From Raillietiella orientalis (taxonomy: Eukaryota), in the NCBI GenBank assembly GCA_036172245.1, contig JAYWIR010000027.1, forward strand, positions 1,178,001 to 1,242,000: a stretch of DNA of 64,000 nucleotides. The letters are read 5' to 3'. This document shows positions 10,968 to 37,918 of the stretch, in pieces. Position 1 is the first letter of the stretch. Each line of letters opens with the position of its first letter. The notes under the pieces were generated by a model. The model worked only from the letters and a program-made list of their open reading frames with translations, was not told the DNA's origin and ran no database searches. The translations under genes and the position numbers were made by a program.

Positions 10968-11408
10968 GATTATGAGGCTATGTATTTGTTCGAGCTCCGA
11001 AGCCACGAGAAGGTGAACCTGCTGGGCTTTCGGGCCGGGCTGTGGCTGGGGACCGCAGCCCTCCTTCTCGGGGCCCTGCTCTTCCTCGTCGGGACCTACG
11101 TCCGCAGGAAGGAGCCCATTGTGCGCCTGCGCGAGACTTTCGCCGTCCTGGACCGGCGCGCCCTGCTCTTCAACGGGAACCTGGAGCTCTGCATCGTCGC
11201 CGGCATGGTGCTGGTCCTGGCGGGCGTGCTGACCCTTGTCGGGACGCTGATGTTCCCCGTGGCGTGGCTGAGGAAGGGGAAGCGGGACTCCAAAAGAGCG
11301 CAAAAGACGGCCCAGAGGACTGTGCAGGCAGCTGTTACGGAGACACGGGGCTCGCTGCCTCTCAGCAGCAGGATCGAAGCGGTGCAGCCCGCGCCGGAGG
11401 GCCGCTGA
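10968..11408 (+). CDS. NRSN1: Neurensin-family protein, coding exon 2 (146 aa + stop; full protein 189 aa)
   Basis: Acceptor TAG at 10965-10967 after a pyrimidine tract, phase 0. Two hydrophobic helices (GLWLGTAALLLGALLFLVGTYV; LCIVAGMVLVLAGVLTLVGTLMF) flank the neurensin-type loop FAVLDRRALLFNGNLE; C-terminal SRIEAVQP motif. Confidence 0.88.
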   Translation, partial: DYEAMYLFELRSHEKVNLLGFRAGLWLGTAALLLGALLFLVGTYVRRKEPIVRLRETFAVLDRRALLFNGNLELCIVAGMVLVLAGVLTLVGTLMFPVAWLRKGKRDSKRAQKTAQRTVQAAVTETRGSLPLSSRIEAVQPAPEGR

Positions 11409-11483: not shown

Positions 11484-12344
11484 GAAAAGCCTTCGGGGTT
11501 GCGCACGAGACCACCCTGCTTTCTGTCTCGCAGACTCCTCGTGGCCGTGGACGGCCCTCTGGCGGCGAAGAACCCGCCGGCGTCCCTGCCATCGTGGTCT
11601 CCACCAGCGGCGCCTACTGCCAAAGGGCATTCGCTCTTCGGGAAGAGGGGAGTGCGTTAGGGGAGTGGGGAGGGAGGACTGCCCTCCCCGTTCGGAGGAG
11701 GAGGGCACCAAGGCTGCTGGAGGTTGTGGAACCCCCATCCTGGGGAGTCTACTCGGACAGGAACCGGAGGACTGGATCCCTTCCTCATCCATCGCTAGCG
11801 AAAGTCGACCTCTCGCATCGGGACGGCCGTGAGAGACGGGGCTGAGGGAGGGGGAAGGGAAGGCTTCTTTACAATACGGGTGCATCCAAGGCGTTGCCAC
11901 GGTGACGGAAGAGGCCCGTCTCCCCTGAAGCCATGAAAGAGGAAGGAGAAGGAAAGCGAGGCAGGGATGGGGTGCGTGAGGGCGATCGAGGTGGGGGGAG
12001 GAGACCCTCGAACTGCTCAGGGTGGGTCCTTCCTCCCGGTTCTCTGGACTCCTCCCAAGGAATGGGCGACACGAAAGGGAGGGCGCAGGCAAGGAGGAGG
12101 AGAAGCAGGAGACCGACGTCTTTATCCATGACCGGGAGTTCGCCAACTGGAGGAGGGCCGGCAAGCCTCCCCGAGCGCTAGTGGCAGGCTCTCAAGGACG
12201 TCTCTGTGGCTACCGAATCATCGTCATTTGCCCTTTCTACCCTCCTCCTCGTCGCCGCCACCACCGGAATCCCTGACATCGAGGTCTATCATCTTTTGCC
12301 CTCCCCCTCCTCCTCATCGCCACCTTCCTTCACCGGTGTCACCA

Positions 12345-12422
12345 GTCATCATCGTCGTCGTCGTCGTCGTCGTTGTCACCGTTGTTGTGGTCACCTTTGT
12401 CGTGGTCACCGTTGTCGTCGTT
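12345..12422 (+). repeat. Degenerate (GTC/GTT)n trinucleotide tract between the convergent genes
   Basis: CATCATCGTCGTCGTCGTCGTCGTCGTTGTC... visible directly. Confidence 0.8.
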
Positions 12423-12668
12423 CCTCAGTGTCTCGCCGCCGTCCCCCCAGTCCCTTCCCATCCACTTCCCTACCGCCATCACCCCTGGGCTCATCGTGGC
12501 GGGTTTTCTCTCCTCCCCCCTCCTCGCTGACTCTGTGGAGCAGTCCATGGGGCTGCTCAAGAGTGGGGCGAGGGCGTTTCCAGAGAAACGAGAGGGCGGC
12601 TCGAGCCAGGAGACTCCCCATCCCCCCCTCACCGAACGCCACCTCTCCCTCCGCCTCGGCCTCTGCTT

Positions 12669-12674
12669 TTTATT
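12669..12674 (-). terminator. Polyadenylation signal of the DPP10-like gene
   Basis: TTTATT on + (AATAAA on -), about 58 nt after the TGA at 12732-12734. Confidence 0.6.
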
Positions 12675-12731
12675 GTCGCCTGGAGACTTCCGTTGCCGGG
12701 CGGCCGCATCCTCTTGCCTGGCGGTGGGGGC

Positions 12732-12863
12732 TCATCGGCCGGCAGAGGAGAAGAAGGACTTGACAGGCTCGGAGTTGTTGAAGCAGCCGTCCCAGAAGCT
12801 CTCCATGGACAGATATAGGTGAGTTCTGACCTCCCTCAGGCTATGACCTTCGTCCGGATACAC
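12732..12863 (-). CDS. DPP10: DPP10-like exon 15 (terminal)
   Basis: cctag|VYPDEGHSLREVRTHLYLSMESFWDGCFNNSEPVKSFFSSAGR*; 132 nt. Confidence 0.93.
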   Translation of the reverse strand: MYPDEGHSLREVRTHLYLSMESFWDGCFNNSEPVKSFFSSAGR

Positions 12864-15800
12864 CTAGGAAACGGGAGAGGAAGAGAAAGAGCGAGGAGAA
12901 CGGCTCAGGCAGGGGAGGGAAGAGGGAGAAAGGGGAAGGGATACCGCAGGCGGCGTCTTGGAAACTTCTCCTGTCCTTGGCTCACTTCTGGAGCTGCTGC
13001 GCCGCCATCCCCTGCGGGAATCTCCAGAGCGGACGGGTGGCGAGGAGGCCAGGCCAACAGGAGGAGGTCCTTACCTTCCGGGTGCGCGGGGCCTCTGCCA
13101 TCACCGTGGAGACGGGAAGGAGGGGAAGGCGCGCGGGAGCCGGGAGGAGCTGGCGCTACGCGGGCGGGGAGGGATGGGCGCGCCTCTGCCACCGCATGGG
13201 TGACAGCGGGCCGGCCAACTGGAAGGGGGTCGCCGCACCAAGGTTAGCAAGGTCTCTTCGCCCACCCCCCCCTTTCCTCCTCCCCCTACCTGCGAGCGGA
13301 AGTTGACGCCCGCTCCAACGAGGCGCCTGGAGAGAACGACGGCGTGCAGGAAGGGGACGTCCTGGTCGGCGGTCCCGTGGGCCAGGTAGAAGAGTTTGGC
13401 CCTGAGGTTCTTCAGCCTGCCTAAAGAGGCGCCCTCGGCGCCGCCGGGGAAGCCGCCGTAGCCCTCCGCGAAGGGCGCGTCTGGGAAGAGAGGGAGCAAC
13501 CGGGGCAGTCGGCCAGGGGTGGTCCCCGCGCGTCGATGGCGCTCCCGGGGCCGACGGCGTTGGCGCAGGGAGAGGGTGCCAGAGGAAGACCCACAGGTTG
13601 TCCTCGGGGTCGCGAAGGGGTGCGTTACCGTGGCAGGGTCGGCAAGGTTATTCCAGCCCCACCCTACGTGAGCCCTCCGCTGGCTTTTCCGGGAGGCAGG
13701 CCGTTGACTCGACATGAGCATCGCGTCATGAAGGCGGCCTCTTCTAGGGGTTGGAAACGTCGCCCCAACCCCCTCGGAGCAGGAAGGGACCACCGCTCCG
13801 GTTCACGTGCACCTGCCGAAGACTTCCTGCTGCTCTCTGCAGCGACGCCCACCCCCGCGGACCCTCGTCTGCGTGCCCCCGTTCAGCGGGAGGTCGTCGA
13901 GGCAACCGCAGGCAGCAGGCGCCCTCCAGAGGACCGCCGGTTCCTCCCCAGGGCAGTCCCCTCTTCCTGGTTAGCCGCATAGGCCCCAGGGAGGCCGACG
14001 AGCAGCGGATCAGGGAGGCAGTCGTCTGGCGGCAACTCCGACGTCCCTCGGCGGGTCACTGGGTCCGCTCTCCGGGGCGCCGCTGCTGCCTAATGCTTAA
14101 CCGGCATGGTCAAGGTCACCTCCCGCTTCCGCGGTCTCGCGAAGAGGACGGGGAATCGGGAAGAGGGTAGGAGTTTGGACCTCGTGGCCGAGGCGCGGGC
14201 GCAGGGATAGGGGCCATGCGGAAGAGCCACGTAGTCGTGCTGTTGCCAGGGCGACCAGCTGCGGCGGCGGCCGAGGAAGGCCTTGGGAAAGGACTACGCC
14301 TCTAGCTGCTCACATCGCAGGAAGCCCATCGGGTCCTCGCAGCGACCCCGAGGCGCGTGGGGCTCAGGGTCGACGCCCCCTACTTACGGAAGGAGCGCCA
14401 GCTCCAGACAGGGGCGACGGAGACGCCGCAGCGGGGCAGAAATGCGTCCTCCAGCAGCACGTTGAGGGCGACATGGGCGCCGTACCCCCATCCCCACACC
14501 CCAACGGCCGTCTGGTTGATGAAATGGTAGCGACTGACTACCTCTCTGGAACAGGAGAGGCGCTGCGTGAGCAGGGGGAGAGCCGAAGGACGGCGCCGAG
14601 AGGTCTGTGAGGAAGACTCCAGCGCGGCGGGCCGCTCGGCTGCGGGCGTGGAGTCCTGCGCTGCGCACCGTTCCCTGCCCTCCCTAGGAAGGTCGAAGGG
14701 AAGCGCGCTGCTCTGGGAGAAATGAGGAAGCGGTCGGTCCGTCCCCGTTTCCATGGCGACCGGTCCGCTTCGGGAGGTGGCAATGCAAAGGCCACTGGCT
14801 CCCGCAGCCCTTCGAACCCGGGCGGAACGTTCATCTCGAGGTCCCTCCCATGCACCATTGCGCGCTCTCTCTGGGCAGCCTCCCTTCCGGCCTGCTGGAC
14901 GTCGCTGGCCGCCGCCGCGCGTCCCAGCAGTGATTCGCCTGCTGCTGCCTCTGGCGGCGGTCCCGACACACCGACCAATTGAGGACGGCCTCCTCCTGGG
15001 TCTCATTGAGGGATCTCAGGATCCGCCCCGGCGCCGGACTCGCCATCGGTCAACCGACTCACACGACTCCTTTGGGTCGTGTGAGTCGGTCGTTGCTGAT
15101 GCGGAAATCCCCGCCGGGTGGACGCGGTCACTCTGCAGCGGGCAGGTTGGCAGAGCTTCCATCTTGAAGATCCCCGTCGGGTGGGGATAGGATACGCCTC
15201 CCCTTGAGGGCTTCTAGACAGGGTGGACACGCGCGGAGAGGGGTGGAACACGGAGCCGCGTGCCCTTGGGAGGAAAGCAAGGGCTGTGGCCGGAAGACAT
15301 CCGGGCGACTTTCAAGGAAAGGCCTGCCCACGAAAGCACGAAAGGGCGCGTGCTTCGGTCATAGGGCTCCGCGCACCCAGCGATCGGCAACCTTCAGCAC
15401 TCTTGCTCTACGCTGCGGAATGCAGGAGTCTGCGCCACGGACCACAGCGCAGGGACCTCGCCGAGGCCCGGCAGTGCGTGGGATTCGGGGTGGGCGTCCC
15501 CTACTTATGGTAGGACAGAGGGCTCATGAATGCTCGACGCATCTCCGACGCCTCGGGCGACCTGCCTTCGGCGGAGCCGACCTCGGCGAGGGGCCCCTTC
15601 GGCAGACAGGTCGGCAGCTCCCGTGTCGCGCCGAACAGCAAGTCGTTCGTGTGCGCCTCGAAGGGAGCGTGCGATGGCGTGGTCGCAGGGAGACCGCGGG
15701 CTCACCTAAGGGCGGTCAGCAGCTGCCTGGAGACGGCTTCACCGGGGGGCGACCTGCCGTCTCCTCCCGGGGGGTCCTCCTGGATGTACACGATGATGTA

Positions 15801-18800
15801 GTTCCTGCTTGAGGACAGGTAGGAATCCCAGTCGAGGCGCCACCTCTCCACGTGCTCCAGGGACTCCGGAAGGTCACCCCTGGCCGGAAGAGGGAGAAAT
15901 GTCCTCCCCTGGACCGTCCGGTCGCGCAGCAACGCGCGCCCCGCCGCCGCCTCATCGGATCGCTCAGGGGGAGTCAGGGCGCCCGGTCTCCCCCACTCTT
16001 GCGGGGCGCCGGGAGTGGGCAGTGGCGGAAGAGTCCTTCTCCGCAAGCGGTGCGGGTGGACCCTCGGGATCAGCGCGAAGGGTGCTGGGGACTCTGACGT
16101 CACGAAGCCGAGCGCCGGGATGCTTCCCCGCTCCGGGACGGCTTTTCCCTTCGCTCTCTCGCTTCCTCTGCAGACCCTCCTTGGAAAGGGACGGGGAGGT
16201 CCCCGATCGGAGGTCAAAGGGGGAGCCATCAGCTGACTCCGCGCGCGCGATCCCCCCCTCCCCCAGCCTCGAGGGTCCGTCCGTGGGCGCATGCAAGTGA
16301 GGTGGAGGAGGAGGTGCTGCCGCCCCGTGGGAGTCCTGTGAGGCGACTGCCTGCCGGACACAAAGTAAGCATCTTCCGCGCGGGATCTCTGACAATGAGC
16401 TGGCTCTCCTCCATCTTGCTTGGGGCGAGAAGTACCCTGCGCGGAAAGAGTTGCAGCAACTGCTGCCAGGGGTTTGGCACGGTGCCCGCCGCTGGCGAGC
16501 GGGGGTGCGGAGGCAGTCCAGGAGGGAGGCTATTCGGTCGCTTGGCAACGGCCAGGAGAGAAAGAAGAAGGGGGTGAGCGTGGAGGGAGCGGCGGTCTCC
16601 TCGTGAGCTTTGAAGCCTCTTGGGAACTCTCGCGCTCTGTGGTTTCCAGAACGATCGTGTGAGAGACGTCCGAAAGAACTGCTTGAGGGCGGGCGCAGTC
16701 CTCGCGCTCGTGGTGGGGGGCTCTGGAACGGTGCGGTCGCGCAATTCCGTGACAGACCCCTGTCCTGAATGCCCTTCGGCTACAGCTGCCTCCTCTTCCC
16801 GCCGAGTGGCGCTCTCTGCTTGCCGTTCGGGCAGACTCCCCCTCCTCTCGCGGCAATTACAGCACAGCGCCGAGCGCAGTGGGCGACTCGCCTCCTTTGG
16901 CCCCCGCAACCTCCCGGTCCATCCGCAGAATCCCTGGGGAAGCGGACGGCTCCTTTCCCTGGGGCGGGACGGGACGGGGCTACCTCCGTCTCCTCGCCCC
17001 GGAAGGCGCAGAGCGAGGCTGGGAGGCCGCGGGTGGGACGAGAAGGGACGCGCTGCCGCTGCAGGGCGTGCGAGGTCGTCGGAGGCAGGCGAGAGCGTGG
17101 ACTAGATGCACTCACACGTGGAGGATGGCTGGGTACTGGTGGTCCTCGTACTCCCTGAGCTCGGGCGGGAGGAGCATCTTAACGACCAGCGAGCCCCCGG
17201 TCACGTTGATCCTCGAGTACATCACGGAGGGCAGCGACACGCTCCTCAGCCGTCCCTGCAAGGCCTCGTTCGTGTTGAGAACGAAGAGCGTGTGATCCCT
17301 CTGGCTGACCACGCCGCACCAGGGAATGCGGGGGCCCAGGCACTCCAAGATGAAGAAGTCGAAGGAGGGGCTGAAGAGGGCATGGTGGTACGAGCAAGCA
17401 GCGGGGTTGTGGCTGCCGTTCCGGTTGATGGCCGAGTAGCGGCGCTCCTCGCAGGTCAGGCACGTCGCGGCAGTCGGCGAGCGGCCGCCCACGTCGGCGA
17501 CCTTGTAGAGGTGGCGCTGCGCGCTCCTCCGGTGGGGCTTCGCGAGGAGGTACCTGGCGCGAGAGAAGGGAGAGTCAGAGGGGAATAGAAGAGGGGGGGA
17601 GAAAGGAAACGACCAGGAAGGCCTGGGCACGCGGCGGACGAGGCGGGGAAAGAGCGAAAGGCAGCGGCGCGCGCGGCCACTGAGGAAGCGGAAGCTGCGG
17701 CGCGGAAGTGAGAGAGGAAGACGCCGCAGTCGATCGGGGACCGTCCAGCGGCGATTTCCTGCATGGAAGGCAAGGTCGGTGGGAACCTCTTGCTCCTCCT
17801 CTCCGGAGGGATCTCCCTCAACTCCTGGTTTCCTCTTCCGAAGGAAAACCTCACGATTTCTCAGAAGGACACTTCCCAAAGGGAACAGAACGCTTCTTGA
17901 CACCCTGGAGAGGTATCGATCTACCGATCCCATGATAACGAATGGACTGCCCCACCTTTACAACCGGAGGGAGCCCCAGAACGACTCCTTGATGCCCTGG
18001 AGGGACTCTGGAGGGTCGACTCCCAATCCCGGAGGCAAGTCAAGGGGGCTTCCGGCTTCCACCACCTCCGCACTCGAAGCCCCGTGGGCCAACCAGGGTC
18101 ACTTTCCGGGAGGAGTACTCGAAACCCACGACACACCCCTCGCTCTCGGCGTCTATCGATCCTTCCCCGGGAGGGATCCGAACCCGTGACGCTTGGTGCT
18201 ACCGCTGGCGCCAACATAGGCTCGTTTCTTCCCTGGGAGTGGATGGGGGTGGAACCCCGTCCTGCTTCCAAAGACCCGTCAGCAGCTTCTCCTGGAACCA
18301 CTTTTGCCACGTTGCTGGTAGACATGTCCATGAACGCCGAATTCTGGAATGACGCTGCCATCTTGCCGAGATCGTTCCTCATGCGGTCCAGAGAGACTTT
18401 CGGCTCGAAGGACTTGGCCGTTCTTCATCGCCAGCGGTCCTTCGAAAGCCCTGTGAAGCATGGAAACCGAGGACCAGGCTTCCCCCCTCCCTCGTTTGCC
18501 CTCCGCGCCGCCAGCACTAACGCCTGCAGCCATCTGCTACGAACGTGGCGCACGCACCCTCGCGCGCACCGCGCCCGATCCTAGGAGCCACGGGCAGGTG
18601 GTTCCTCCTTTGCTCCAGTAACCCCACTCCCGTGCAGGCCCGGGCACCCTCCAGGCGGCACTGCTCCTCCACAGCCGGTGTTCCTGAGTCTGGCACGGTC
18701 GACAGCATCACGGGGCGCAGTTCGTGGGCACGACGTCCTCGCGGGGTCCGAGGGCGGCGGGAGTAGGGGCGGCCTCGCTGGCGGTGCAAGAGGGAGGAGC

Positions 18801-21800
18801 ACGCCGGTCCTGAAGGTGTTACGTGTCCGGGACGCCACCTGTGTGCCCTCCATTGGTGGTCAGCGCCCGTAGAGCATGACGACCTCCCGAGTGAGCGCGT
18901 GGCCCTCAAAGAGACGGCGCATCTGCCTCTCTTGCCGCCTTGCCTCCCGTTCGCCCCTTTCCCGGACAAGTTTGCGGGAAATGCCCTCGGGTCCCGGTGC
19001 TTCCGCCCGGATCGTTGTCTCACTCACGGGCGCCCGCGTCTCCCAAAGAGTCGCGTCTGGGCCCTCCCAGGAGTGGCCACCTCTGCTCCTCCAGAGCTGC
19101 TGCCCACGCGCTTGCAGCACACCGAGAGAAGGAAGGCCGTCCATCCCCCTGAGGGGGAAGCAACGGGCCCTCGGGGATCGTGGCGCGGAAGAGGACCCGT
19201 AAAAGCGGAAGTCCGGGCGAGCTCTCGGGCTCTTTTCCCAGTCAAGGGGCAGGGGTGCTCCCTTGAACCAAGGCCGTCAGCCGAGTCTACGCTCGAAGGA
19301 TCAGCGGGCTGCACGGCGCGAGGCGTCCCTGCGGAACGCCCTCGGAGCCGCGAGAGGCGCGGTGAGCTGCTCTTTCCGAGCGCCCTGCCACCTTCCCGGC
19401 GGACGGGCCGCCGGTCCAGGACAAGCAGGTCCTCAGTACGAGTAGCAGCAGAGCTGCTGCCCGATGGGATAGGTGACGAAACGGACAAAGGGCAGAGTGG
19501 TGAGGAGGAACGGACGGTGCTGTGGCCGCTGCTGCTGCTGCTGATCATGATGATGAGGAGGAGGAAGAGTGGTGTAGGAGTTGTAGGGAAGGGGAGGTAG
19601 GGAGGCTGCAAAAGACCACTCACAGCTCGTTGCTCTCCTCGTTCCATCCCAGCACTTCCTCCACGTCCAAGGGAGCGGCGGTCAGAGGGCGCAGCTCGTC
19701 CCCGCTCAGGGTCCCCAAGGCGGCGTGCCTGGAACCGTCCGCTCTACCCGCCACGAGGATATAGGACTTCTGCTTCCCGGAGAAGGAAGCCACGGACGGG
19801 TACCGCATTGGGCGCAGGGAGGCGGACTCCTGATGGACCTGCAGGAGACGCGGGCGCAGCGTGGGGTCAGACTACGGGACGGAACTCACCTTCCTGCACT
19901 GCCAGGCGGGCGGCTGGCACACGGCCAGCAGGAACGCGTCCTGCTTCCTGGGGGTCCAGAGAACCGCGAGGCTCGCGTCGTCCAGCCATCGGCAGGAGAT
20001 CATGTAGGACTCCCTGGAAGAGAAGGGGAAACTTTCGGGAAAAGGTTCTTCCGGCGGGAAACGACGGCCTTTCCCCACTCCTTTGTTCCCTTTCCTGGAA
20101 ATCCCTTTCTCTGGGTTTCCATAGGCTACGGGAAAAGAGAGAGGCGACTGGGTACACCAAGCGAGCGGGCAGGAATCCTAGATGCCCCTCTCCATTACAC
20201 CTGCGATACGATTGGTCTTCGGCTTGGAGAAAAGGTGACCTCTCAGTGTTTCCTGGGTTACGTAAGGGAAGGACGGGAAGCAGAAGGAGGCAGGAAACGA
20301 CGTCTCAAGGGTGTCATATTCCAGATGATCCCCCGAATCGAGGCGGGTCGCACATGTCCACCGCTAGCTAGGGGGTCTCCATCCTCCCTGCGCACCAGAT
20401 CGCTCATCAGGAAGGGCCTCGCTTCCGGGCCTCCGTGACCCATATTCCTTTCCCAACCTCCCGAGTGGCTTCGTCCCGGTGCTTCCGTGCAGCAAGGCGG
20501 CTCGCATCGCTAGAGCCGGTGCGACGAGCATGCAGCGCCCACTCGAATCCAACGAGGGCACGCCTAGAGACGCCTAGTCTGGAATTTGGGAGGGAATTTC
20601 GCAGAGGAAGAGTGACTAGACAGCACAGAGGAGGCACAGCTATGCTCAGATGCACCCCGTTCGAACCGTGATCGTTTCGCAACCCGCCCGCTAGATGCCA
20701 CAAAAACCTTGCCAACGACAGCCTTCGCCACCTACCGTCATCTCCAATACTTTGTAAGTCTCCCGCTAGATGCCAACCAAATCGCCAACACAGATCCCTC
20801 CTCCACTCCCTTCCCATTTGAAAACGGGATCGGGAAACGATCTCATTCCCTATGCTCAGAGTCAACTCGTGGAGGGAACCTTAGCTAGGCGATCAGCCAA
20901 GAGGGACTAGTAGAGGGAAAGCCCAGACCTGGGAGAGGGGAGACCGGAGGAAGACAGAACCACGGGTCATCCGGATGCCCTGGATAGAAAGAGCAGCGGA
21001 ACGGCTGTGAGAAACTGGGTCGCTCAGCTTCCCCTCCTGTTTCCCAGGCACTGCTGTAGGGACTCGTATCGGATGGAAATCTCATAGACACTGCCCACTC
21101 TGCAGCAGGAATCCCAGTCTCCTCGCTTCCGAAATGCGGCTACCCCTTCCCGAAGGGGTTATCCACAAAACATGGCGCAGGGGCGGGTCAGTTCATACGG
21201 GTGCTCCTTCGGAGGCACACCAAAGAGGCTTCCTTGGATACCACCAAGTTACGTGGCATTCTGGAGGGAGCGGCTCCACCCTCAGGCGGAGCCTCCGGCC
21301 CTGGCGGCCGCCCACCAGTCTGGGGTGGAACGGGTAGAGGCCACAACGGTGCGCGCGCGACCTTGGAAACGCCGTTCCTTCCTCGCGATCCCTTTCGCTC
21401 GACCTTCTCTCCCTGCAGGCTACTGGTCTTCTGCTGCCGGCCTGCAGCCCTCCTCATGGCACTGCTGCTGCTGCAGTTCTTCGTCTGCCACGTCACCACC
21501 AGTCCGTCGTCCTCGAGCTGATCCTCCTGGTGGCTGTCTCCGTGCTCGCTGTCCTGACCTCCACCGCACGCCGTGTCCTCCTTGGTTCCGGTGGTTCTCT
21601 AAGTACCCTCGCTCTGGATGAGGGATGGGGGTGAGGTGGGCTTCGCGTCTCGAAGGCGTCGTTGACGGCGGCGGGCGGTTGCAGAGCGGCTCGGGTCGGG
21701 GGGACACGCTGGCAGTGCCATCTGCGAGAGGGTCTCACAACGACAGCTCGCCGCGCTCCGGCGGTGGGCTTTCGCCTGCGTGCTTTTCGGCGACCGCAGG

Positions 21801-24800
21801 GCTGCCTGTCGCGCCCTCGGCCCTTCGGGTTCGTCTGCTACTCCCGGACCCGAATAGCTGACGCAGGTTCCCTTCGGGTTTCTCCCTCTTCCTTTCCTTC
21901 TGCCTCGTCCCTCGACAGGAAGCTCGGCTGGAGACGCGTCCTGACCCCTTCCCGCTCGTCGTCGTCGTCCGCCTAGGAGAGAAGGGGGAAGGGGGTGATG
22001 GAAGGTCGAGGAGGGCCGAGGAGAAGGAGCAGTTCCCTTCCTTGCCTTTCTGGAGTTCCCGCCGAGGATCGAAGGTGCTCCCGTCGGGGAACTTCCTGTT
22101 GACTGGACTCGCGCCAGGTGCTCCTGTTCCTGGGAGGCTGTCAAGTCGGGGGGCGCGCTCGCAGACGGCATTGCGAGCAGGACGCAGAAGGATAGCTCGC
22201 CACGCTCCGGCGGAGGGCTTTCGCCTGCGAGCTTTCTGGCAGCACTGGCTGCATCCTCGGGCTGATCCACGCGGACAGCGGCCTCTCGCCGTTCTCTCAC
22301 GCGCTTCCCATCCCTCCAGATGACCCCCGACCCCGCCCTTCGAGCACCTGAGAAAGATGAAGGAGCGCGGCCGCTGATGGCAGCTTCCCCGAGCGCTCGG
22401 CAATGGAACAACGCCTCCCTCCAGGTACTAGAGAGGTGCTCGTCATATCTGGGATCGAGAGCATACCCATCGCTACAAGGAGAGGGGGAACCCTGCTCTC
22501 CTAGAAGGGTCGCGCGGCCTGGAGCCCTCAGGGGTCGAGGAAAGGAGAAAGCCGCCGCGTAGGCAGAGGCGGTTGGGGGTGGATGGGATGCGAGATCGCA
22601 CTTACGAGGGTCGCAACCCTGCAGGGGGAGACACGTCGACGGTCGCGTTGGGCTTCTTCAGGTCCACGACCTTCGGGGTGAACGTAGGGATGCTGGACCC
22701 CGCCTGGAAGAGCAAGGGGGGAGAGTTTCCCTCTTGGCGAGCTGCGCCCTCCAGGGAGGGAGGAGGGGCGCCACCCACCGTTACCTTGGCGAAGCGGAAG
22801 GAGGAAAGTTCCGGGTACTCGTTGCCTTCCTCCTCGGATCCCGCGTAGCTCAGTCCGTGCATCCGGAAGACCTGGGACGTGTCGACGCTCCCGAAGGCGA
22901 GGAAACTTCCCCGGGGAGAGAACCACAGCAGCTTCGGTGTCCTGGCGAGGTACTCTGGGAAGGGGCGCCGTGGAGCCGGGTGAGGAGAGAGCGTCCGCCA
23001 GAAGAAAGCAAGGCCACTCGCGGGGATAGGGAACCCGGCGGCCGCGCGCGATCAACCCGCTCTGCGCCCGGCACATGCGACGCCCTCATGACGTCACTCC
23101 GCGACTTCCTGCGCGCGCCCGCTAGAGGAGCGTGCGCCGTCCGAACATGCGAGCTCGTGACACATGTCCCTCTGGCAGCAGCAACGAGCGCCGTCTGCTG
23201 CGGGCCCGGAGTCGACCGCGGTGCTGCTGCACAGTGCTGCCGCCAGCTCCTTGCGGAGAAGGCTGGCCGCCACTGAAGGAACGTCTCGAGCAGCTGCTCC
23301 CCCGCTCCCGATCCTGGGGGAACAGGGGTGGAGGAGTGGAAAGGGAGGTACCTCTGTGCAGAAGGTCGGGAATGCCGTTGTACACGGAGCCTCCTGCCCC
23401 GTCCGCAGTCAGCTCGTGGACGGTCCGCCCGTCCACCTCCGGCTTGTAGAAGACGTCGTTCCGGAAGACCATGGCCACACCGCTACCTACGGCTGACCAT
23501 TCCGCGAGCTGCAGCCGAGGATGCCGGTGGTCCCCCGGGAAGGGAGTGAGCCGGAAGACCGACCTGAGGAAGCAGGGATGGTGACGGGAGCGAAGGAAGG
23601 GCGAAGGGCGCACGGTTGAGGGAGACCATGCCCGCTGGAGGGAGGCAGCTCCTCCCGCTTCCAATGTTTCCCCGTAGGGGAGTGCCTCCTCCGAGCGGAG
23701 ACGCGCCTTCCCACCCAGGCGACTTTCAGGTCCCTGGAGTCAGGGTAGGCGGAGGGGACGGGACTGCAGAGGCATCGGGGGTGGAATGGGAGATTCGAGT
23801 TCCTGAATTTCGCCTCCCAAACGCCCCCTGATACCCCCTCCCTGTCCCTCAAGACACCGTCACCCGACCCCCACTGTCCGCTGCCCCCTACTCACTGTTT
23901 CTGGATGTCGAAGACGCTGTACCTGGCTCTCTCAGGCTCGTCCCCTAGCTACGGAAGCAGAACGAGCTATACTGCTTCCAGGGGCTTCCAGGGAAGGATG
24001 GGAGGGAGATAAGGAGGTCTCTCTTTCCCATCCACCCCTGACAGGGGCGGCTCACCTTGACGACGCCATGCTTGATGAGCAGGAAGCGCTGGTCCGCAGA
24101 CATCGCGTAGTCGTCCGAGTCGAAGTGCTCCTGGAAAAGAAGGGTCCTCAGGATGGCAGGACGCCGGGAGCGTCCTCCGGGAATCAGGAAGGTCAGCTTT
24201 CAGGACCCCGCGAGCGCGCCCCCGGCCTTGACAGCCTCCCAGGAACAGGAGCACCTGGCGCGAGTCCAGTCAACAGGAAGTTCCCCGACGGGAGCACCTT
24301 CGATCCTCGGCGGGAACTCCAGAAAGGCAAGGAAGGGAACTGCTCCTTCTCCTCGGCCCTCCTCGACCTTCCATCACCCCCTTCCCCCTTCTCTCCTAGG
24401 CGGACGACGACGACGAGCGGGAAGGGGTCAGGACGCGTCTCCAGCCGAGCTTCCTGTCGAGGGACGAGGCAGAAGGAAAGGAAGAGGGAGAAACCCGAAG
24501 GGAACCTGCGTCAGCTATTCGGGTCCGGGAGTAGCAGACGAACCCGAAGGGCCGAGGGCGCGACAGGCAGCCCTGCGGTCGCCGAAAAGCACGCAGGCGA
24601 AAGCCCACCGCCGGAGCGCGGCGAGCTGTCGTTGTGAGACCCTCTCGCAGATGGCACTGCCAGCGTGTCCCCCCGACCCGAGCCGCTCTGCAACCGCCCG
24701 CCGCCGTCAACGACGCCTTCGAGACGCGAAGCCCACCTCACCCCCATCCCTCATCCAGAGCGAGGGTGCTGAGAGAACCACCGGAACCAAGGAGGACACG

Positions 24801-27278
24801 GCGTGCGGTGGAGGTCAGGACAGCGAGCACGGAGACAGCCACCAGGAGGATCAGCTCGAGGACGACGGACTGGTGGTGACGTGGCAGACGAAGAACTGCA
24901 GCAGCAGCAGTGCCATGAGGAGGGCTGCAGGCCGGCAGCAGAAGACCAGTAGCCTGCAGGGAGAGAAGGTCGAGCGAAAGGGATCGCGAGGAAGGAACGG
25001 CGTTTCCAAGGTCGCGCGCGCACCGTTGTGGCCTCCACCCGTTCCACCCCAGACTGGTGGGCGGCCGCCAGGGCCGGAGGTTCCGCCTGAGGGGAGGAGG
25101 TGCCCCTCCCCTCACTCTGTTGATGACAATGACTGGGAAGGGAAGGGAGGAATGAAGATCCCTTTCTCGTGACCTGCGGGAAGGCTACCCGCTGCTGCGG
25201 TTCCCCTATATGCAGCTCGCGCCTCGTGGTGGAGAGATCGAGGAGGGTGTGGCGAAACACATCCCTGTGGCGAAGGGGCAAATGCTCCAGTCAACCGCTG
25301 CACCCCCTCCAAGAGCAGCCTCTCCGGAGGCGTGTTCGCCGCCACTTACGAAGACGTCGCGACTGACGAGGACGCGCGAGGCGAAGTCCCGGGCGTCGAG
25401 CTCGACAAGGTTCCCTTGCACATCCAGGGTGACGAACTTGCTGCCTGTAAAGAGAAGGTGCCTAGCAAGGGGAGATATTGGACGCGCCTCGAAAGGGAGA
25501 AAAGTAGCGGACCCTGCCCCTTTCCCTCACCCGCTCGCCCCCTGCTGGGCATCGCCGCATAGGTGCCTTCCTCCGCGACGGAGGGAAGCCCCACGATAGG
25601 CGTGGGTGGACGCGTTTTCCCAGCTTCCTTCTTCCTCATACCCTTAACTCGGCCCCTCCGACGAGCGCGCGCGTGTTGGAAGTTGCGGAACTAGAGAACG
25701 GCCGGGCTGGGTAGGGAGTTTTGAGCCCCTCGGGAAACGATACAGCTGCTCGAGAGGTCTCGGGTGCGGGGGAGGGAGTCTCCGGCTGACAGTCCCGCAG
25801 TCTCTACTGAAGGCAGCTTCCTGAGGGGTGGCCGAGAGTCCCGCGCTTGTCGCTCGCACGCCTCCTTCGTTGGAGGTTCATCCGGGAGACGTTCAGCCTC
25901 TTGGACACATCCCACAAGTAGTCGCCCTTCTCTTTCGCCTTCTTCTGCCTCCCTTATTGTTCTTCATTTCTCGAAGCTTCTCCCGACCGGGATTCTCCGC
26001 GGTGCCGCAGAGTCTGCCTGCTGGCAACTGCGGAGATGCCCCAGCGTTCTCCCCTCTCCTCCCCTTCCTCGGCATCCTGGGGGTGGACCGGCCGCTGCAG
26101 CTCCCTTCTTCCCACTTTCTTCCCGGTCCTTCCGGAGGCAGCGGCGACGTTCCCTCTTCGAGAGCATGCAGAGCGGTGGGGGCAGAGAGGGAGAGAGGAA
26201 GCGCGTGGTCCCTTCCCGACGGGAGGGCAGGAAGGTGTTTTCCCCCTCCTCCCTTCCTCTTTCTTATTCTTCCTCTTTTTCTCTTCCTTCTCTTCCTCCT
26301 CTTCCCTTCCGTCTCTTTCCCTCGGAGGGAGGCGTAGTCGGCGATGTCTCACATGCTCCTCCCGTCCGCCTCCCTAAAGGGAGAAGGGACGAGGGAGCTG
26401 TTGGGGGGAGGGGGGACCCGCGGGGAGGATTGACTCCTAGCGCTTCATCTTCTCCGAGGAGGCCACCCGCAGGCGAGAGGCGATGCCTCTCAGCGGCCTC
26501 CAGGCGGCCTTGTGGAACCAAGCGGCGACCCCCTTCTCTCTTCCGCACATCCCTGAGCAGTGAGAAGGGGGGGATTTCTCGTTTGCCCCACCGCCGCATC
26601 GCCCCTGCAATCGGTCCGCAGAGATGGTCGGCGGGAGAAGAGCTCCGGGCAGCTGTGAGAGGTGGGGCTCCGTCGGGGGACGTCGCCAGGGGTGCCCCTC
26701 CTCCAGGAGCTGACCCTTTCTCCCTCTGAGGCTCCCCTCCGACGTGTCCTGGTTGCTCCCCATGCCTCCTTCGCCGAAGCACCTTCTCTGAGAACTTACC
26801 CCCTGCATCTCGCGCGTATAGAGCCCCGGGCAGGCTGCGCATACTCCTAGCGGAGGCCCTAGAGGGCGACTACATTCCCATCTGCTGCCCCTCCTCCCGA
26901 TCTCCCTCCTGCGAGCGAATCGGCGGGTGGTGGGATCGCCCCGTCATGCTATCCTGGCGCCGCTGCTTCCAGGTGGTCGCCCGTGCCCATCCCGGGGCTG
27001 GCTGAGAGAATCACGATGCCCGAGGCAAGGAACGCGGGGGCGGGCCAGGAGCACCGCAGCAGCTTACCGGAGACCCAGGAGCCGTTGAAGCGGGCGGGCC
27101 GGAAGGCATCGTCCGTGATCTCATGGAGGTACAGCTTCCTGCCCAGGTGCTTGAACCTGTCGAGAGACCTCTGCGAGTGGATGGTCAGTACCACGATGCC
27201 CAGGACAGCGCCGATCACGAGGATCGAGATGGCGACCCCCTTCCAGCTCTGATCCTCGCGCGCACTCGCGATCAGGTC
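12732..27278 (-). CDS. DPP10: Inactive dipeptidyl peptidase IV-family protein (DPP10/DPP6-like, peptidase S9B). Span of coding exons 2-15: 2346 nt, 781 aa + stop
   Basis: 14 GT-AG exons join in one open frame with matching phases. N-terminal TM helix (SWKGVAISILVIGAVLGIVVLTI), beta-propeller motifs (FNGSWVS, YSVFDI, VYNGIPD, LWFSPRG, QRHLY, CLTC, FILECLGP) and hydrolase-domain motifs (GVWGWGYG, HGTAD, YPDEGH). Confidence 0.93.
13290..13480 (-). CDS. DPP10: DPP10-like exon 14
   Basis: cccag|APFAEGYGGFP...FYLAHGTADQDVPFLHAVVLSRRLVGAGVNFRSQ|gtagg; 191 nt. Confidence 0.93.
14388..14545 (-). CDS. DPP10: DPP10-like exon 13 (nucleophile elbow)
   Basis: tccag|EVVSRYHFINQTAVGVWGWGYGAHV...CGVSVAPVWSWRSF|gtaag; 158 nt. 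Confidence 0.93.
15706..15879 (-). CDS. DPP10: DPP10-like exon 12
   Basis: gccag|GDLPESLEHVERWRLDWDSYLSSSRNYIIVYIQ...QLLTAL(R)|gtgag; 174 nt. Confidence 0.9.
17116..17553 (-). CDS. DPP10: DPP10-like exon 11
   Basis: gccag|YLLAKPHRRSAQRHLYKV...CLTC...FILECLGPRIP...LLPPELREYEDHQYPAILH(V)|gtgagt; 438 nt. Confidence 0.93.
19624..19838 (-). CDS. DPP10: DPP10-like exon 10
   Basis: Follows a 51-nt intron; VHQESAS...LTAAPLDVEEVLGWNEESNE(L)|gtgagt; 215 nt. Confidence 0.9.
19890..20013 (-). CDS. DPP10: DPP10-like exon 9
   Basis: tccag|ESYMISCRWLDDASLAVLWTPRKQDAFLLAVCQPPAWQCRK|gtgag; 124 nt. Confidence 0.9.
21279..22162. repeat. Inverted repeat arm A (884 bp), DPP intron 8
   Basis: Reverse complement of 24210-25093 (paired coordinates sum to 46372). 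I count 6 substitutions and no indels; mirror-image ORFs appear in the ORF track. Confidence 0.97.
22606..22703 (-). CDS. DPP10: DPP10-like exon 8
   Basis: tccag|AGSSIPTFTPKVVDLKKPNATVDVSPPAGLRP(S)|gtaag; 98 nt. Confidence 0.9.
22785..22954 (-). CDS. DPP10: DPP10-like exon 7
   Basis: cccag|YLARTPKLLWFSPRGSFLAFGSVDTSQV...YPELSSFRFAK|gtaac; 170 nt. Confidence 0.92.
23352..23563 (-). CDS. DPP10: DPP10-like exon 6
   Basis: ctcag|SVFRLTPF...LQLAEWS...VFRNDVFYKP...VYNGIPDLLHR(E)|gtacct; 212 nt. Confidence 0.92.
23896..23948 (-). CDS. DPP10: DPP10-like exon 5
   Basis: cgtag|LGDEPERARYSVFDIQK(Q)|gtgagt; 53 nt. Confidence 0.85.
24056..24130 (-). CDS. DPP10: DPP10-like exon 4
   Basis: tccag|EHFDSDDYAMSADQRFLLIKHGVVK|gtgag; 75 nt. 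Confidence 0.9.
24210..25093. repeat. Inverted repeat arm B (884 bp), DPP intron 3
   Basis: Reverse complement of 21279-22162, ~99% identical. Confidence 0.97.
25350..25444 (-). CDS. DPP10: DPP10-like exon 3
   Basis: tacag|(G)SKFVTLDVQGNLVELDARDFASRVLVSRDVF|gtaagt; 95 nt. Confidence 0.9.
27068..27278 (-). CDS. DPP10: DPP10-like exon 2 (TM anchor)
   Basis: ctag|DLIASAREDQSWKGVAISILVIGAVLG...FRPARFNGSWVS(G)|gtaag; 211 nt. Confidence 0.92.
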
Positions 27279-27821
27279 CTAGGGAGGAAGGAAGTGGGAG
27301 AAATCGAAATTCCTGAGAGCGCTTGGCAGTCCTGACGAACGCGCTGCCAGTGCGAGAGCTCCTGAGACGTTCGTCAGGGCTGGAGCGCTGCAAGCAGCGG
27401 AGGAAGCGGGCAATTCGCGCACTTCGCCCACCAGGGGCAGGGAGGCACCCTCAAGTCTGCCTTCAGGGTAAACCCCCGACCGTGGAGGTCCTTCCGGACC
27501 TTCCAGAGGGAGGGGGGAGGGGGAGAGATGGATCCCACTGACACGGCAGGGCGGCCACTTCCGCTCTTCTGAATCAGTTGCTGCGGGTCAGAAAGAATTC
27601 CCGAGCAGGGTCGCCCGCCGGCGATGGACGGGATGGAGGTGGTTCCCGAAACTGGAGAAGCTCGAAAGGTCGATGAAACGGAGGAAGCTTGGGAAAAATC
27701 CCAGCTTCTCCCAGGAAGCGTTCGGGTCTCCCATTGAAGATGTCCCCTAGTGATCGAGAGCGGACTTTCGTAGTCGAGCTGCCAACGTCCCGACCCGCGC
27801 AGCGGCGAGGCTCGGGCAGAC

Positions 27822-27886
27822 AGCCTCGGCACAGCGGCAGAAACCCCTTGGTGCTGCGCGGAAGGTCGCGGGTTCGAGCCCCGGTA
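27822..27886 (+). mobile_element. tRNA-derived SINE-like head (degenerate)
   Basis: B-box GGTTCGAGCCC at 27871-27881 with an A-box-like CGGCACAGCGG about 45 nt upstream; no complete cloverleaf. A second B-box GGTTCGAATCC lies at 28010-28020. Confidence 0.4.
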
Positions 27887-28222
27887 GCGAACTTTCTCGG
27901 CAAAGCCGACGAACCTCAAAAACGCTTTTAGACCCGCTCAGCGGGGAGACTCGGGAATGCAGCTTCAGCACGGCAGCGACCCCCCCCCCCTGCCCAATAT
28001 AAGGGCGTGGGTTCGAATCCCTGCACTAGGAAGGTTCACACGCGGAGAGGAATGCCCTCGCACCCTTTAATGCTCCCGCTAGGCCCTTGGCGATTCTTGA
28101 CCAGCTGTCGCGAACCAGCGCTTTCTCGCCGAAAACGAGGAAACGCCGAGAATAAGGGTTGGCTCTCTTCCCTCCCCTCCCCCTTCCCCTCATTCCTTTT
28201 TGCAATCTATAATCACGTAGAC

Positions 28223-29096
28223 CAGTGGTGGCCAACCTATGTCACGCGTGCCAGTAGTGAGTCGCACATACAAAAATTTTGCTGGTACCTCAATAAGTAA
28301 AAAAAAAATTAACCGCAAATGCAATTTTTATTCGATCAATTAGCATCAAAAATACAACAAAAATCCCATCCACTCTTTGAATGCTACGGACTCATGTGTG
28401 GGTTCGGCGAAAATCATTGGCGTGGACTGTGGACGCGTCATATGAGTTTGGCAAGTGCTTTCACATTGTACACGCGGCACAAATTAGCACTATTCGTGTT
28501 TGAGGTGGACGACGCATCCACTCACGTTCTTACAGTTCCCTTGGCAACGACAGTAAACGACATTCTATTTATATATCGGCTAACGATTTCTCTCGGTGTG
28601 GCATGTAATTTATTATGCCGTTTTTCATCTTTGCGATATCTTGAAAAATGTGAACGAATTTCTTCGAATCATAATCACAACTTTTAAATACATAATATGT
28701 GTTTGGAAAAAAATGGAAATATTTCATTTAATGTGGTGTACATAAACAATTACAATGAATGAGCACTTTATGCAGTGAGTCGGTACTTCGATGGAGCACG
28801 CGGTGCGCGAAAAAGCGTTCCGTCCTTCTGTGACTCAACACGGAACGTTTCAATCTGATGAGCTCCGCACCCAAAGGGTTAATTATTAAAATATGTACGC
28901 TAACTTCTGAATTTTTATGAAATCCTTCATGTTACCTTAGATTACTCTATCTTTTTAATTGTTTCATTAAAATTCTGCAAGGATCAATTTTCTGTTACTT
29001 TTTTCTCTTATTAAAAGCTCCCTGGCACGTCAACAGCTTGATAAATATCATCTGTAAATTTTTGGCATGCACATTTAAAAAGGTTCGGCACCACTG
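28223..29096. mobile_element. Non-autonomous hAT (Charlie/Buster-like) MITE, 874 bp
   Basis: 16-bp TIRs CAGTGGTGGCCAACCT / reverse complement CAGTGGTGCCGAACCT (14/16); degenerate 8-bp TSD ACGTAGAC / TCCTAGAC; AT-rich non-coding interior. Confidence 0.75.
28790..28882. mobile_element. Possible piggyBac-type terminus nested in the hAT MITE
   Basis: ...CGCACCCAAAGGG|TTAA at 28878/28879-28882 matches the piggyBac AGGG-TTAA end. No partner end was found. Confidence 0.3.
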
Positions 29097-31625: not shown

Positions 31626-34600
31626 AGTGCTTGCGTGAACTTTCTCCGTCGGGCAAACCCCTCTAATTTGCCCGTGCCCTGTGCCCTACGGAAACCCATG
31701 GTGACGGAAGACGAATCTGTTGACCTGAGCCGACTGGAACGGTTTGCTGCTCTTCGAGCACCGGCCGAGCGTTTTGTCGATTCTCTTTTTTTTAAAAAAA
31801 AAAAGAAAGGGAAAAAACGGATTGAGGAATAAGCGAATTGGGCTCCACTGCGCCTTCTGTAATTCCCATGGCTACGACGAGATGGCAGTCAGATGCTTGG
31901 AAACCTCAACTCGGAATCGCTTCGACAGTTCCTTTGCCATGGATTTCCGTCTTCCCCTTCCGGCAAGAGGCTACACTTTTGCATTTGGCTCTCTGTGTTT
32001 CATGATGTTCCAATGAGGTTTCTGTCGTATAGCACATTTTTTAAGATTGCAAACATCCACATTCGTTTCAGCTTCCTGGAGAGACGACGAACAATCGGGA
32101 AAAGGGATTGTCGAAAACGACCCATCGAAAAGGGAAGGATCGAAAACTATTCGGCTCATCCCAGTTTCCTAGGCGTGCTCAACGAACCGGATTGGACCTC
32201 GTGAATTCGAGCTCCTCACTGGGGAGGAGCGCCGAGTGCTGATCAGGACCCTGACGAAACCGGCACAAGAAACCTCTTCAGTCGGGATTTGCAGGCCGGA
32301 CCACGGATGGCTTCCACCCCGGGTCTCAAGGCCTCCCCTATCTGGTACACAGAACTGGACCTAGAAGAGCCTCTCTACCTGGAAACAACGCAGCATCTGG
32401 AATGCAGCCTCACTCTTTGTCTTCTAAGTATTTTTTTTTGCCGTGGATGCATCACTTCGGGACTCGCATGAATTCCGAGTCCTGTTTTATCTTTGCCGCC
32501 CGAGCATGCAGACATGTGCCCAGATCTTGACTGCCACGTCCCGGTTGGAGGGGAAAAGGTGGAAGCTCCCAAAGTTACCAGGAAAGCTCCCAGTTGTCCG
32601 AATCATGCAACCGAAACCCGATCCATCCTTTTTTCACCAGTTTCAAGAAGACTGAATACATAAAAGAACACTTTTGGTGGCCAAATCTGTGTCATGACCT
32701 AGAGTCATGCAAAAGCAGCTGCCTGGAAACCTTTTCCATGGGACAATCAAGGAAGAAGAAAGGATCCATTCTTCTTTAATTATTACTTTCTCAAAGGAAA
32801 AAGGTTTGTTGTGGAATGTAAAGAAAAAAGAAAATGTTCTCATCTATAACTGCAGCCCCAGCATGCTTTTGCAATGAGCCTTCATGCTCCCTGCTCATTA
32901 TCTGCTAGGTAAACAGCTTTGCTGAATAGCACAATTTTCATTAGGACACATAAAAGATTCCTCATGGAACATAAACTGACTCTCTTTCCTCACAGCTGCT
33001 GGTTGGCATGCTCACTATGCTCTTATTACTCACTAATTATAAACAAATAAAAGTACAACAAGAAATACAGCAGTTTTATTAATACAGCTGGAAATCATAC
33101 GTATCAGAAACACACAAAAAAAATTAACCAGAGCTCTCTTCGTAGTGTTTATGTTACATGCCCGTCACCCGGTGGATGAAAGTAAATGAAAATCATTCAC
33201 TAAGCAAGGTGGTCATGGGGTCAGTTTTTGCAGGAGGCATGCATGGGGGGGGGAGGGGGGGATGCTCTTTGAACACCAACGAAACTGACACCAGAATCAA
33301 CCTGTCCACCCGAACGAGAAGCACACTTTCTACAAGGTCTGATGCAAGGTTGCAAGTGACTACGTTTGGACAAATGTGCACTTCCCGTTCGCATTCGCAA
33401 GCGTGTATATAACACTGAAATGCACTACACAATGCACGAATGACAACGTTTAGGAAAAGTGTCTTCAGTTACCTTACTGGACGAATCGACAATGACCAAA
33501 GGCACGTTTTTGAACTTGCTGTTTTCTGATTTTTTCTTTGTGGAGCTGGAGGAGAAGGAGGAATCACTTTCCGAAGACATCGCCACTGGTCTTGGTTACC
33601 AATTGATTCATATATTGATTCACATGTTGTTGTTGTTGTTCTTGCTGTTGTTGTTTTTTTTTTTTTTTTCTTCTTTTTTTTTTTTTTCTACGAGCGGATT
33701 GGCGTCTTCATCGTTGCGAATCTACTCCTGCTCCTTACTGTAGCACATATGTCTTCCTTCCTTCAAAACTCCCTATTCCTCTTCAACATTTATCTGGTAA
33801 AATTGATGCTTTTTTAAACGCTCACATTGCCAAAATACAGATCGAGAAGTGTACGAGAGAACACTGAATGGGTGCGTTAACTCGGAAGAGCTTCGGATGT
33901 TGTAGTCGAAGCTCCTCTATCTCTTGAACTCCAATAAGGACCTCTATTCTAAAAACTTGGAAAAATTGTTGTGGAGAGCAGTTGTCCTCCAATTGGTCTA
34001 TATTCTAAATTGATGGATATTTAGAGGTTGTGCATGCGCTGTAGGCAATGCGCAGTTACCGAAAAAATCAATTTCTGTAAAGAGAAGCATCAAAGAATCG
34101 ATAAATTTGCGCCAAATCAGTGTTAAATAACGAGAGGAGAAAAATTAGCAACGATGGAAAGTGAAATCGATCCACCTATGAAGTCGTTCTATGTATCCTC
34201 TGAAATCCATCCCATGGCTTTTAACGGAAACTGAAGACAAAAGAATCAATAGGAAAAGACCTTCTGTATTAAAAATACATTTATGTAATTATCCATTGTT
34301 CATTTCCATTCTGTATTTAAAATTTTAATTGTACGGCTACGTGGAACGCGTACAGAGTATCACGGATGTATTCCGTCCATGTGCTCTCGAAGTGGGAGAG
34401 ATCTAGCAGAGGACTAGCCATGGTCATGTCCTCTACGTAGGTGCAGACATCTGAGGTTCGCAGGAAAAAAAGGAAGAAAAAAATGCACGGAAGATCTTAT
34501 TCAAGACAAGCAGAATGAATAGAAACATCTATCTGGAACCACACAGGAACGGGAAAGCCACACATCGATTTTTTCGGGACTTCGCGCAAGTCAGAAAAGC

Positions 34601-35019
34601 GGTACCTATATATGTATATGTACAGAGAGAAAGAGATAGAGAGAGAGGAACAGTCAAATACATATATTCACTAATATAGGTTTCCTTTTTAATGATGGCT
34701 GATTGTTTTCCAAGCGAAATACATATATACATATATAGCTATTCCTTACATATATATAGAGAGAGAGAAGGAATAGTTATTCACTCATAATGTGAAGGAG
34801 CCAAGGAAAACATAATGCACGAAATGCATGAAGGGTACACACATGAAAAAAAAAAAAAAAAGGAAAACTCATCCATTATCCAAAAAATTTCTCCAAACCT
34901 CTGTGACTTCTGGTTCTTTTTCTTAAGTTAAGAATAAGGGAGAGAATGATCCGCCATATTTAAATGCAAGAGGATAGAGAAAAAGAGAAAGCCCGACACA
35001 AAAGAGCATTAAAAGCCTT

Positions 35020-37731: not shown

Positions 37732-37918
37732 TTGGTTTGAAAATTCCATCTTTAAAGTAAAAATAATTTCCACAGTTTGTTTTTTGCAATCATAAAAACT
37801 TATAAATTAAAATCATATATATCTCTATCTATCTGTGATTTTAATTGATAAGTTTTTAAGCTTGCAAAAAACGACTGTGGAAGTTATTTTTACTTTGAAG
37901 ATGGAATTTCTAAACCAA
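37732..37918. repeat. Foldback palindrome (arms ~84 bp, loop ~20 nt), MITE-like
   Basis: 37732-37815 (TTGGTTTGAAAATTCCATCTTTAAAG...AAAATCA) is the reverse complement of 37836-37918 (TGATTTT...GAAGATGGAATTTCTAAACCAA) with roughly 10 differences. Confidence 0.9.

Follow-up and report, generated by a model that had tools for sequence, protein, structure and literature searches.

We report that a pair of 884-nt arms, almost perfect reverse complements of each other, brackets five coding exons of a DPP6/10-like gene in a 64,000-nt stretch of the Raillietiella orientalis genome (assembly GCA_036172245.1, contig JAYWIR010000027.1, positions 1,178,001 to 1,242,000 of the forward strand). This stretch is hereafter called the window, and all positions below are counted from its first nucleotide. 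The gene lies on the minus strand, and both arms are located in its introns. In our judgement there is about an even chance that the pair is a real, young inverted duplication of approximately 0.9 kb of non-coding intronic DNA within this one gene. We regard it as probably neutral or mildly harmful structural variation and not as an evolved device.

Geometry and identity of the inverted repeat

Arm A (21279-22162) is located in intron 8 and constitutes the downstream arm in the pre-mRNA, whereas arm B (24210-25093), its reverse complement, is located in intron 3 and constitutes the upstream arm. The repeat finder, applied to positions 19000-27500, returned one large inverted pair, which consists of these two arms of 884 nt each, 99% complementary and 2047 nt apart. 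The spacer (22163-24209) carries exons 4 to 8 and their introns. A base-by-base ungapped comparison of the arms gave six mismatches in 884 positions and no insertions or deletions (indels). The mismatches are found at 21291/25081, 21336/25036, 21601/24771, 21604/24768, 22146/24226 and 22148/24224. From these positions, the longest uninterrupted identical tract measures 541 nt (21605-22145), and another interior identical tract measures 264 nt. A match of 884 nt at 99.3% identity cannot have arisen by chance. The arm boundaries, the six substitutions and the absence of indels had been given in a preliminary description of this DNA, and the repeat finder and the ungapped comparison reproduced all of them.

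When arm A was compared with the 64-kb window by blastn, we recovered the arm itself, the inverted copy (99.32% identity) and one partial direct copy of 93 nt with 81.7% identity at 22145-22235. No third copy of the arm was found by this search in the window. An all-against-all blastn comparison of the window yielded four non-self pairs at E 1e-10 or better, and three of the four belong to the inverted-repeat structure.

It is very unlikely that one of the arms is an artefact of assembly or amplification that is absent from the organism. The two copies differ by substitutions, with no indels, and the window contains no N among its 64,000 bases. The extra arm lies cleanly within an intron, and order, orientation, splice sites and frame are preserved in all exons around the two arms. 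Fold-back chimeras are usually abutting palindromes and often occur at contig ends; the arms described here are unlike them in that they are separated by a unique spacer of 2 kb.

Exon structure and placement of the arms

Our exon model covers eight exons, 3 to 10, which have AG acceptors and GT donors throughout, and their joined frame runs for 346 codons without a stop. All exons are on the minus strand. Exon 3 (25350-25444; 95 nt) is upstream of arm B, and its donor is 256 nt from the outer end of this arm. The enclosed exons are exon 4 (24056-24130; 75 nt), exon 5 (23896-23948; 53 nt), exon 6 (23352-23563; 212 nt), exon 7 (22785-22954; 170 nt) and exon 8 (22606-22703; 98 nt), which total 608 nt. 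Exon 4 has an acceptor ending in ttccag, a GT donor and an open joined frame, and exon 8 has a gtaagt donor at 22605/22606. The block of enclosed exons opens with a canonical acceptor and closes with a canonical donor. Exon 9 (19890-20013; 124 nt) is downstream of arm A, with its acceptor 1265 nt from the outer end of this arm, and it is followed by exon 10 (19624-19838; 215 nt). Exon 2 (27066-27278), which was recognized from frame translation, encodes a hydrophobic membrane-anchor stretch and a WKG motif.

Intron 3 is 1219 nt long with arm B and would be 335 nt long without it, and the inner end of arm B is 79 nt from the acceptor of exon 4. Intron 8 is 2592 nt long, and arm A starts 443 nt past the donor of exon 8. 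These measurements agree with the five spacer exons summing to 608 nt and with the arm-to-splice-site distances of 79 and about 440 nt that had been proposed beforehand.

A separate feature was noted inside arm B. At 24742-24953 on the minus strand, a strong acceptor-like site and a GTGAG donor-like site are placed 212 nt apart in the sense orientation, and the phase-0 frame between them is open. From a motif scan, this segment is a possible frame-shifting cryptic exon.

A divergent DPP4-family gene as the host

For the assignment of the host gene, 130 minus-strand stop-to-stop pieces of at least 45 amino acids from positions 12000-29000 were scanned against Pfam at E 0.01 or better. Four of the 130 pieces matched, three with DPPIV_N and one with Peptidase_S9. 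The DPPIV_N matches are located at 23125-23739 (E 1.7e-7), at 22605-23051 (E 6.4e-6) and, under the curated cut-off, at 17115-17957 (E 4.4e-4); exon 7 carries a DPPIV_N match. The Peptidase_S9 match is located at 14383-15015 on the minus strand (E 6.9e-5). Among solved structures, the best match of this hydrolase piece was fibroblast activation protein (FAP; E 1.7e-6). In the alignment, WGWGYGA of the hydrolase piece is superposed on WGWSYGG of FAP, which places a glycine at the position of the nucleophile serine. Because the nucleophile position is occupied by glycine, the DPP-like protein is predicted to be catalytically inactive, like proteins of the DPP6/10 type. Human DPP10 presumably has a glycine at the same position.

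Exon 6 aligned to residues 112-163 of FAP and also to DPP10 and DPP6 in the Protein Data Bank (FAP, E 1.9e-4; "inactive dipeptidyl peptidase 10", 2.1e-4; DPP6, 1.4e-3; DPP4, about 0.02). Exon 2 gave a weak and non-significant alignment with DPP6 around the WKG motif (27278-27066; E 0.53). Among 67 word-sharing candidates from longer proteins, none matched exon 6 at E 0.001 or better, which is weak evidence because the query is short. A protein query from exon 6 gave 431 pattern matches in metagenome contigs, none of which was confirmed.

These similarities suggest that the host gene is a divergent, non-enzymatic member of the DPP4 family (S9B), for which "DPP10-like" is a fair label. The gene resembles DPP6 and DPP10 in having DPPIV_N and Peptidase_S9, a hydrophobic anchor on the N-terminal side and the nucleophile glycine. 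It differs from them in being very divergent, and its single exons reach E values of 1e-4 to 1e-6 against solved structures. The name DPP10-like, which was used in the preliminary description, is upheld by both domains and the glycine, and exon 6 scores FAP and DPP10 about equally.

Local duplication or two insertions

Several marks of mobile elements were searched for at the arms. We found no target-site duplication at either arm in a search for abutting or offset direct repeats of 5-15 nt with offsets of up to 5 nt. There was no terminal inverted repeat; the observed score of 10 was close to the shuffle mean of 8.5 and was reached by 19% of 1000 shuffles. Runs of five or more A or T were absent within 30 nt of any arm end, and self-comparison of the arm by blast gave no internal repeat. 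The absence of a target-site duplication, a terminal inverted repeat and poly-A at the arm ends had been suggested from inspection, and the offset-tolerant search, the shuffles and the scan for A/T runs lead to the same view.

The arms also lack recognizable functional elements. None of the open-frame pieces in or overlapping the arms was among the Pfam matches (4 of 130 and 2 of 122 pieces matched). When 10 arm pieces were scanned again at E values up to 1, one noise match appeared at E 0.15, under the cut-off. There were no Rfam matches at the gathering score in the window and no tRNA genes, and the four microRNA matches in 20000-25600 are at chance level (E 0.24-0.81), with none inside an arm.

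The homology ends sharply at both arm ends. The outer flanks of the arms had a similarity score of 12, compared with a mean of 11.2 and a maximum of 22 in 200 shuffles, and the inner flanks had a score of 15, compared with a mean of 11.8 and a maximum of 17, also in 200 shuffles. We considered whether the arms are the converted core of a larger inverted repeat that has otherwise decayed, and we rejected this possibility because no residual homology was found in the flanks outside the arms.

A diverged internal unit informs on the inner breakpoint. Locus A contains two direct copies of an approximately 137-nt unit (21678-21814 and 22126-22262), whose alignment to each other scores 58.5, compared with a shuffle maximum of 22.5. 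The second copy (22126-22262, plus strand; about 80% identical to the first) straddles the inner end of arm A by about 25-30 nt. In an in-register test of the last 30 nt, the observed score was reached by none of 3000 random controls. Arm B holds just the truncated start of the second unit. Because the unit continues at locus A alone, the inner breakpoint is not the natural end of an element, and locus A is the parent or the longer copy. A degenerate 36-nt motif of the unit occurred in the window at its three known places and at no others; it had no matches in metagenome contigs and none in viral contigs.

We propose that, most likely, the pair was not transposed but was copied locally, for example through template switching in replication or through repair of a break. 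In support of a local duplication, the gene is intact across the region, with canonical exons 3 to 10 and 346 open codons. Some observations weigh against this proposal. At both loci, the GC content of the arms is 0.66, compared with 0.55-0.62 in most flanks. The A/T skew of the arms is approximately 0.3 in magnitude, whereas the flanks have none or the opposite sign; on the plus strand of arm A, which differs in this from its flanks, T exceeds A with an AT skew of -0.17 to -0.41. Insertions at both sites would be expected to look like this, with the arm forming a compositional block at each locus. The shared outer end and the differing inner extents of the arms also fit 5'-truncated copies of a retroelement, and the arms may belong to a dispersed repeat family with further genomic copies beyond the 64-kb window. 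Furthermore, the direction of copying is two-sided: the continuity of the sub-repeat favours locus A, whereas the T-over-A skew of the sense strand fits arm B better, in a comparison whose power was not demonstrated.

The same observations bear on a tenable minority possibility, in which two independent recent insertions of one dispersed family, for example a tail-less non-LTR (long terminal repeat) retroelement, placed oppositely oriented copies in introns 3 and 8. Of the two, the intron-8 copy would be the longer one, and the intron-3 copy would be truncated at its inner (5') end. In favour of this explanation, GC content and A/T skew set each arm apart from its flanks. The outer end is common to both arms, and homology of the arm-internal unit extends past the inner end of arm A alone, which would correspond to variable 5' truncation. 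A remnant of a reverse-transcriptase zinc-binding domain at 4507-5460 also points to past retroelement activity in this genome. Weighing against two insertions are the lack of a target-site duplication, terminal inverted repeat or tail and the lack of a protein family in the arm frames examined. In the 64 kb, there is no further copy or fragment besides the adjacent 93-nt piece. Two copies that are 99.3% alike and 2 kb apart in one gene, with none elsewhere in the window, would require a coincidence or a young family of very high density.

We also tried to identify the native arm with an order-2 Markov model of the other introns of the gene, scored in sense versus antisense orientation. The model had no power, as 5 of 8 held-out chunks received the wrong sign, and the scores of the arms (+0.30 and -0.49 per 100 nt) were discarded.

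Age of the pair and distribution of the differences

The divergence between the arms is 6/884, or 0.68%, from which we infer that the time since the duplication or the last homogenization is 0.0034 divided by the neutral rate per site. At example rates of 1e-8 to 1e-9 per year, this time would be 0.34 to 3.4 million years.

The differences are not evenly distributed. Four of the six fall at the arm edges, two in the outermost 58 nt (21279-21336) and two in the innermost 17 nt (22146-22162). In a post-hoc binomial test, this edge clustering had a P value of about 7e-4 with each site counted separately, and of about 2e-3 with each of the two doublets treated as one event. The clustering equally fits gene conversion of the interior, error-prone synthesis near template-switch junctions and short homology that already existed at the junctions. 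Error-prone synthesis at template-switch junctions would give edge-clustered differences.

Predicted pairing in the pre-mRNA

A 4015-nt stretch of the pre-mRNA (minus strand, 25193 to 21179) was folded computationally. In the minimum-energy fold, 879 of the 884 arm positions are paired in register, and the energy of the arm duplex is -2153 kcal/mol. Twelve other inverted pairs were detected in 12000-28500, one of which is a 69-nt sub-repeat pair with 83% complementarity, while the remaining 11 are 23-30 nt long with 70-83%. The arm pairing has no comparable rival in the gene. The folding model thus shows the arm-to-arm pairing to be thermodynamically dominant.

Upon transcription, the arms could pair into an 884-bp duplex from which exons 4 to 8 are looped out. 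This looping would bring the donor of exon 8 near the acceptor of exon 4, and the donor of exon 3 near the acceptor of exon 9. The outcome that would be favoured is a circular RNA of 608 nt, a skip from exon 3 to exon 9, or both. By analogy with other systems, back-splicing of exons 4 to 8 or the exon 3-to-9 skip is plausible. The arm duplex could also serve as a substrate for double-stranded RNA (dsRNA) editing or dicing. The extent of these events would depend on whether intron 3 is spliced before arm A, which is about 2.9 kb downstream, is transcribed. Early removal of intron 3 would limit the pairing of the arms.

When exon 3 was joined to exon 9 in translation, the reading frame shifted, and 72 foreign residues were followed by a stop in exon 10. 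The stop is reached after 92 nt of exon 10, with 120 nt left to the donor of this exon. An out-of-frame skip ending in exon 10 had been predicted, and the joined translation confirmed it. Because the product is out of frame and its stop precedes the next junction by 120 nt, it would probably be a target of nonsense-mediated decay; otherwise, it would give a short anchored stub.

At the DNA level, the arms would provide a substrate for inversion of exons 4 to 8.

Comparison with known systems

The premise that reverse-complementary intronic matches promote back-splicing agrees with the excerpted texts of two papers, which extend it to exon skipping (PMC8330042, PMC6769675). In Caenorhabditis elegans zip-2, according to the excerpted account, deletion of the reverse-complementary matches removed both the circle and the skipped transcript (PMC8330042). 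The mouse Sry exon is described, in the excerpts of the other source, as flanked by approximately 15 kb of almost perfect complement that is required for circularization; the same excerpts state that Alu pairs flank most human circular RNAs and that ADAR1 antagonizes such pairing (PMC6769675). The DPP6/10-like locus resembles these systems, as excerpted, in having complementary introns around an exon block with canonical splice sites (PMC8330042, PMC6769675). Pairing would likewise bring a downstream donor to an upstream acceptor, and skipping of the enclosed exons is also reported for them in those excerpts. The arms (884 nt, 99.3%) are far longer and more perfect than the Alu pairs or the 13-nt zip-2 match described there, and much shorter than the Sry repeats, which measure roughly 15 kb. 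The arms also differ in not being a recognizable repeat family, and the locus is known here from its DNA sequence alone. Taken as a whole, the earlier interpretation of this locus stood as to structure and pairing, and the function that it proposed is plausible by analogy with reported circularization systems.

A second group for comparison is formed by inversions that arise through non-allelic homologous recombination. The locus shares with them the presence of two highly identical inverted copies around a short unique segment. For one human inversion, the likely breakpoint region is given, in the excerpted report, as a 782-bp tract with 99.9% identity (PMC3961182). Here, in contrast, one orientation is present in a single sequence, the segment is 2 kb long and intragenic, and a flip would invert five exons.

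The hairpin-RNA loci of Drosophila, which are the source of endogenous small interfering RNAs (siRNAs), also consist of a long inverted repeat that would give long, perfect dsRNA if transcribed, and the excerpted source describes siRNAs from such loci that suppress other genes (PMC10317233). The present arms differ from these loci in being intronic, in having no other match in the window and in enclosing a 2-kb loop with host exons.

A possible regulatory cassette or inversion switch

It is very unlikely that selection maintains the pair as a device, whether a cassette for circular RNA or exon skipping or a switch based on DNA inversion, with gene conversion keeping the arms nearly identical. 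The predicted pairing is very strong and has no competitor in the gene, and the clustering of four of the six differences at the edges is the pattern that gene conversion of the interior would leave. Excerpts of PMC3961182 also describe inverted repeats as mediating recurrent human inversions. However, edge clustering is equally expected from synthesis errors during template switching or from short junction homology. The skip and the inversion would both wreck the reading frame, which looks like damage and not like regulation, and the arms contain no recognizable functional element.

Still less probable is a specific form of this idea, in which a pair maintained by gene conversion acts as a switch of a DPP6/10-like channel-partner gene, either by diversion into the 608-nt circle or by reversible silencing through a flip of exons 4 to 8. 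In the circle version, most transcripts would be diverted into the 608-nt circular RNA. This RNA, read in frame 0, continues through the back-splice junction for 228 codons before the first stop. In the inversion version, the gene would be silenced in certain cells or individuals by recombination between the arms. We see no indication of an evolved switch in the evidence considered here, and the pair is young.

Significance of the locus

The locus is a fresh example of a known arrangement, set apart by how long and how perfect the match is and by the lack of competing matches. Provided that both arms exist in the organism and that the gene is expressed, it would offer an unusually clean natural test case, in which a five-exon block is enclosed by an 884-bp intronic duplex of 99.3% identity without competing matches. 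Such a case could be used to gauge pairing-driven diversion into circular RNA, frame-shifting skips, RNA editing and small RNAs in an animal outside the usual model species. The DPP6/10-like gene could also plausibly undergo recurrent inversion or lose its function at this site. If the arms are merely two repeat copies or an artefact, the locus would be ordinary.

Other features of the window

Just past the 3' end of the DPP-like gene and on the opposite strand, a single open frame of 146 amino acids (10968-11405, plus strand) matches the Pfam family Neurensin/TMEM74 (E 4.4e-11). The closest Atlas clusters are those of neurensin and occur most often in Chordata and Mollusca, which we take as a lead only. 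No relatives of this frame were found among 361 candidates, which is weak evidence because of the short query.

At 4507-5460 on the minus strand, a 318-amino-acid open frame matches zf-RVT with E 3.7e-5 and 24.7 bits, compared with a cut-off of 27.5. From this match, the frame probably derives from a non-LTR retroelement that has decayed; no reverse-transcriptase domain was returned for the frames next to it.

A sharp AT-rich block spans 32000-44000, with a GC content of 0.34-0.44, between GC-rich DNA of 0.50-0.67. There were no Pfam matches among its frames of at least 100 amino acids. The observed/expected ratio of CpG is 0.83-1.05 in the GC-rich DNA, which indicates no depletion, and is lowest (0.55) in the AT-rich block. 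Intron 9 of the DPP-like gene (19839-19889) is 51 nt long. The undepleted CpG and this short intron are unlike a typical jawed-vertebrate gene, although the gene content, with DPP6/10-like and Neurensin/TMEM74 genes, looks animal and vertebrate-like.

The sole window pair at E 1e-10 or better that lies apart from the inverted repeat is an 80-nt direct repeat with 91% identity (52718-52797 and 53384-53461). Short arrays of tandem repeats, with 15-nt and 23-nt periods, were observed at 12354-12418, 26268-26317 and 63228-63273, and the purine/pyrimidine-rich units of 23 nt are similar to GGAAGG/CCTTCC-rich tracts, which are frequent in these introns.

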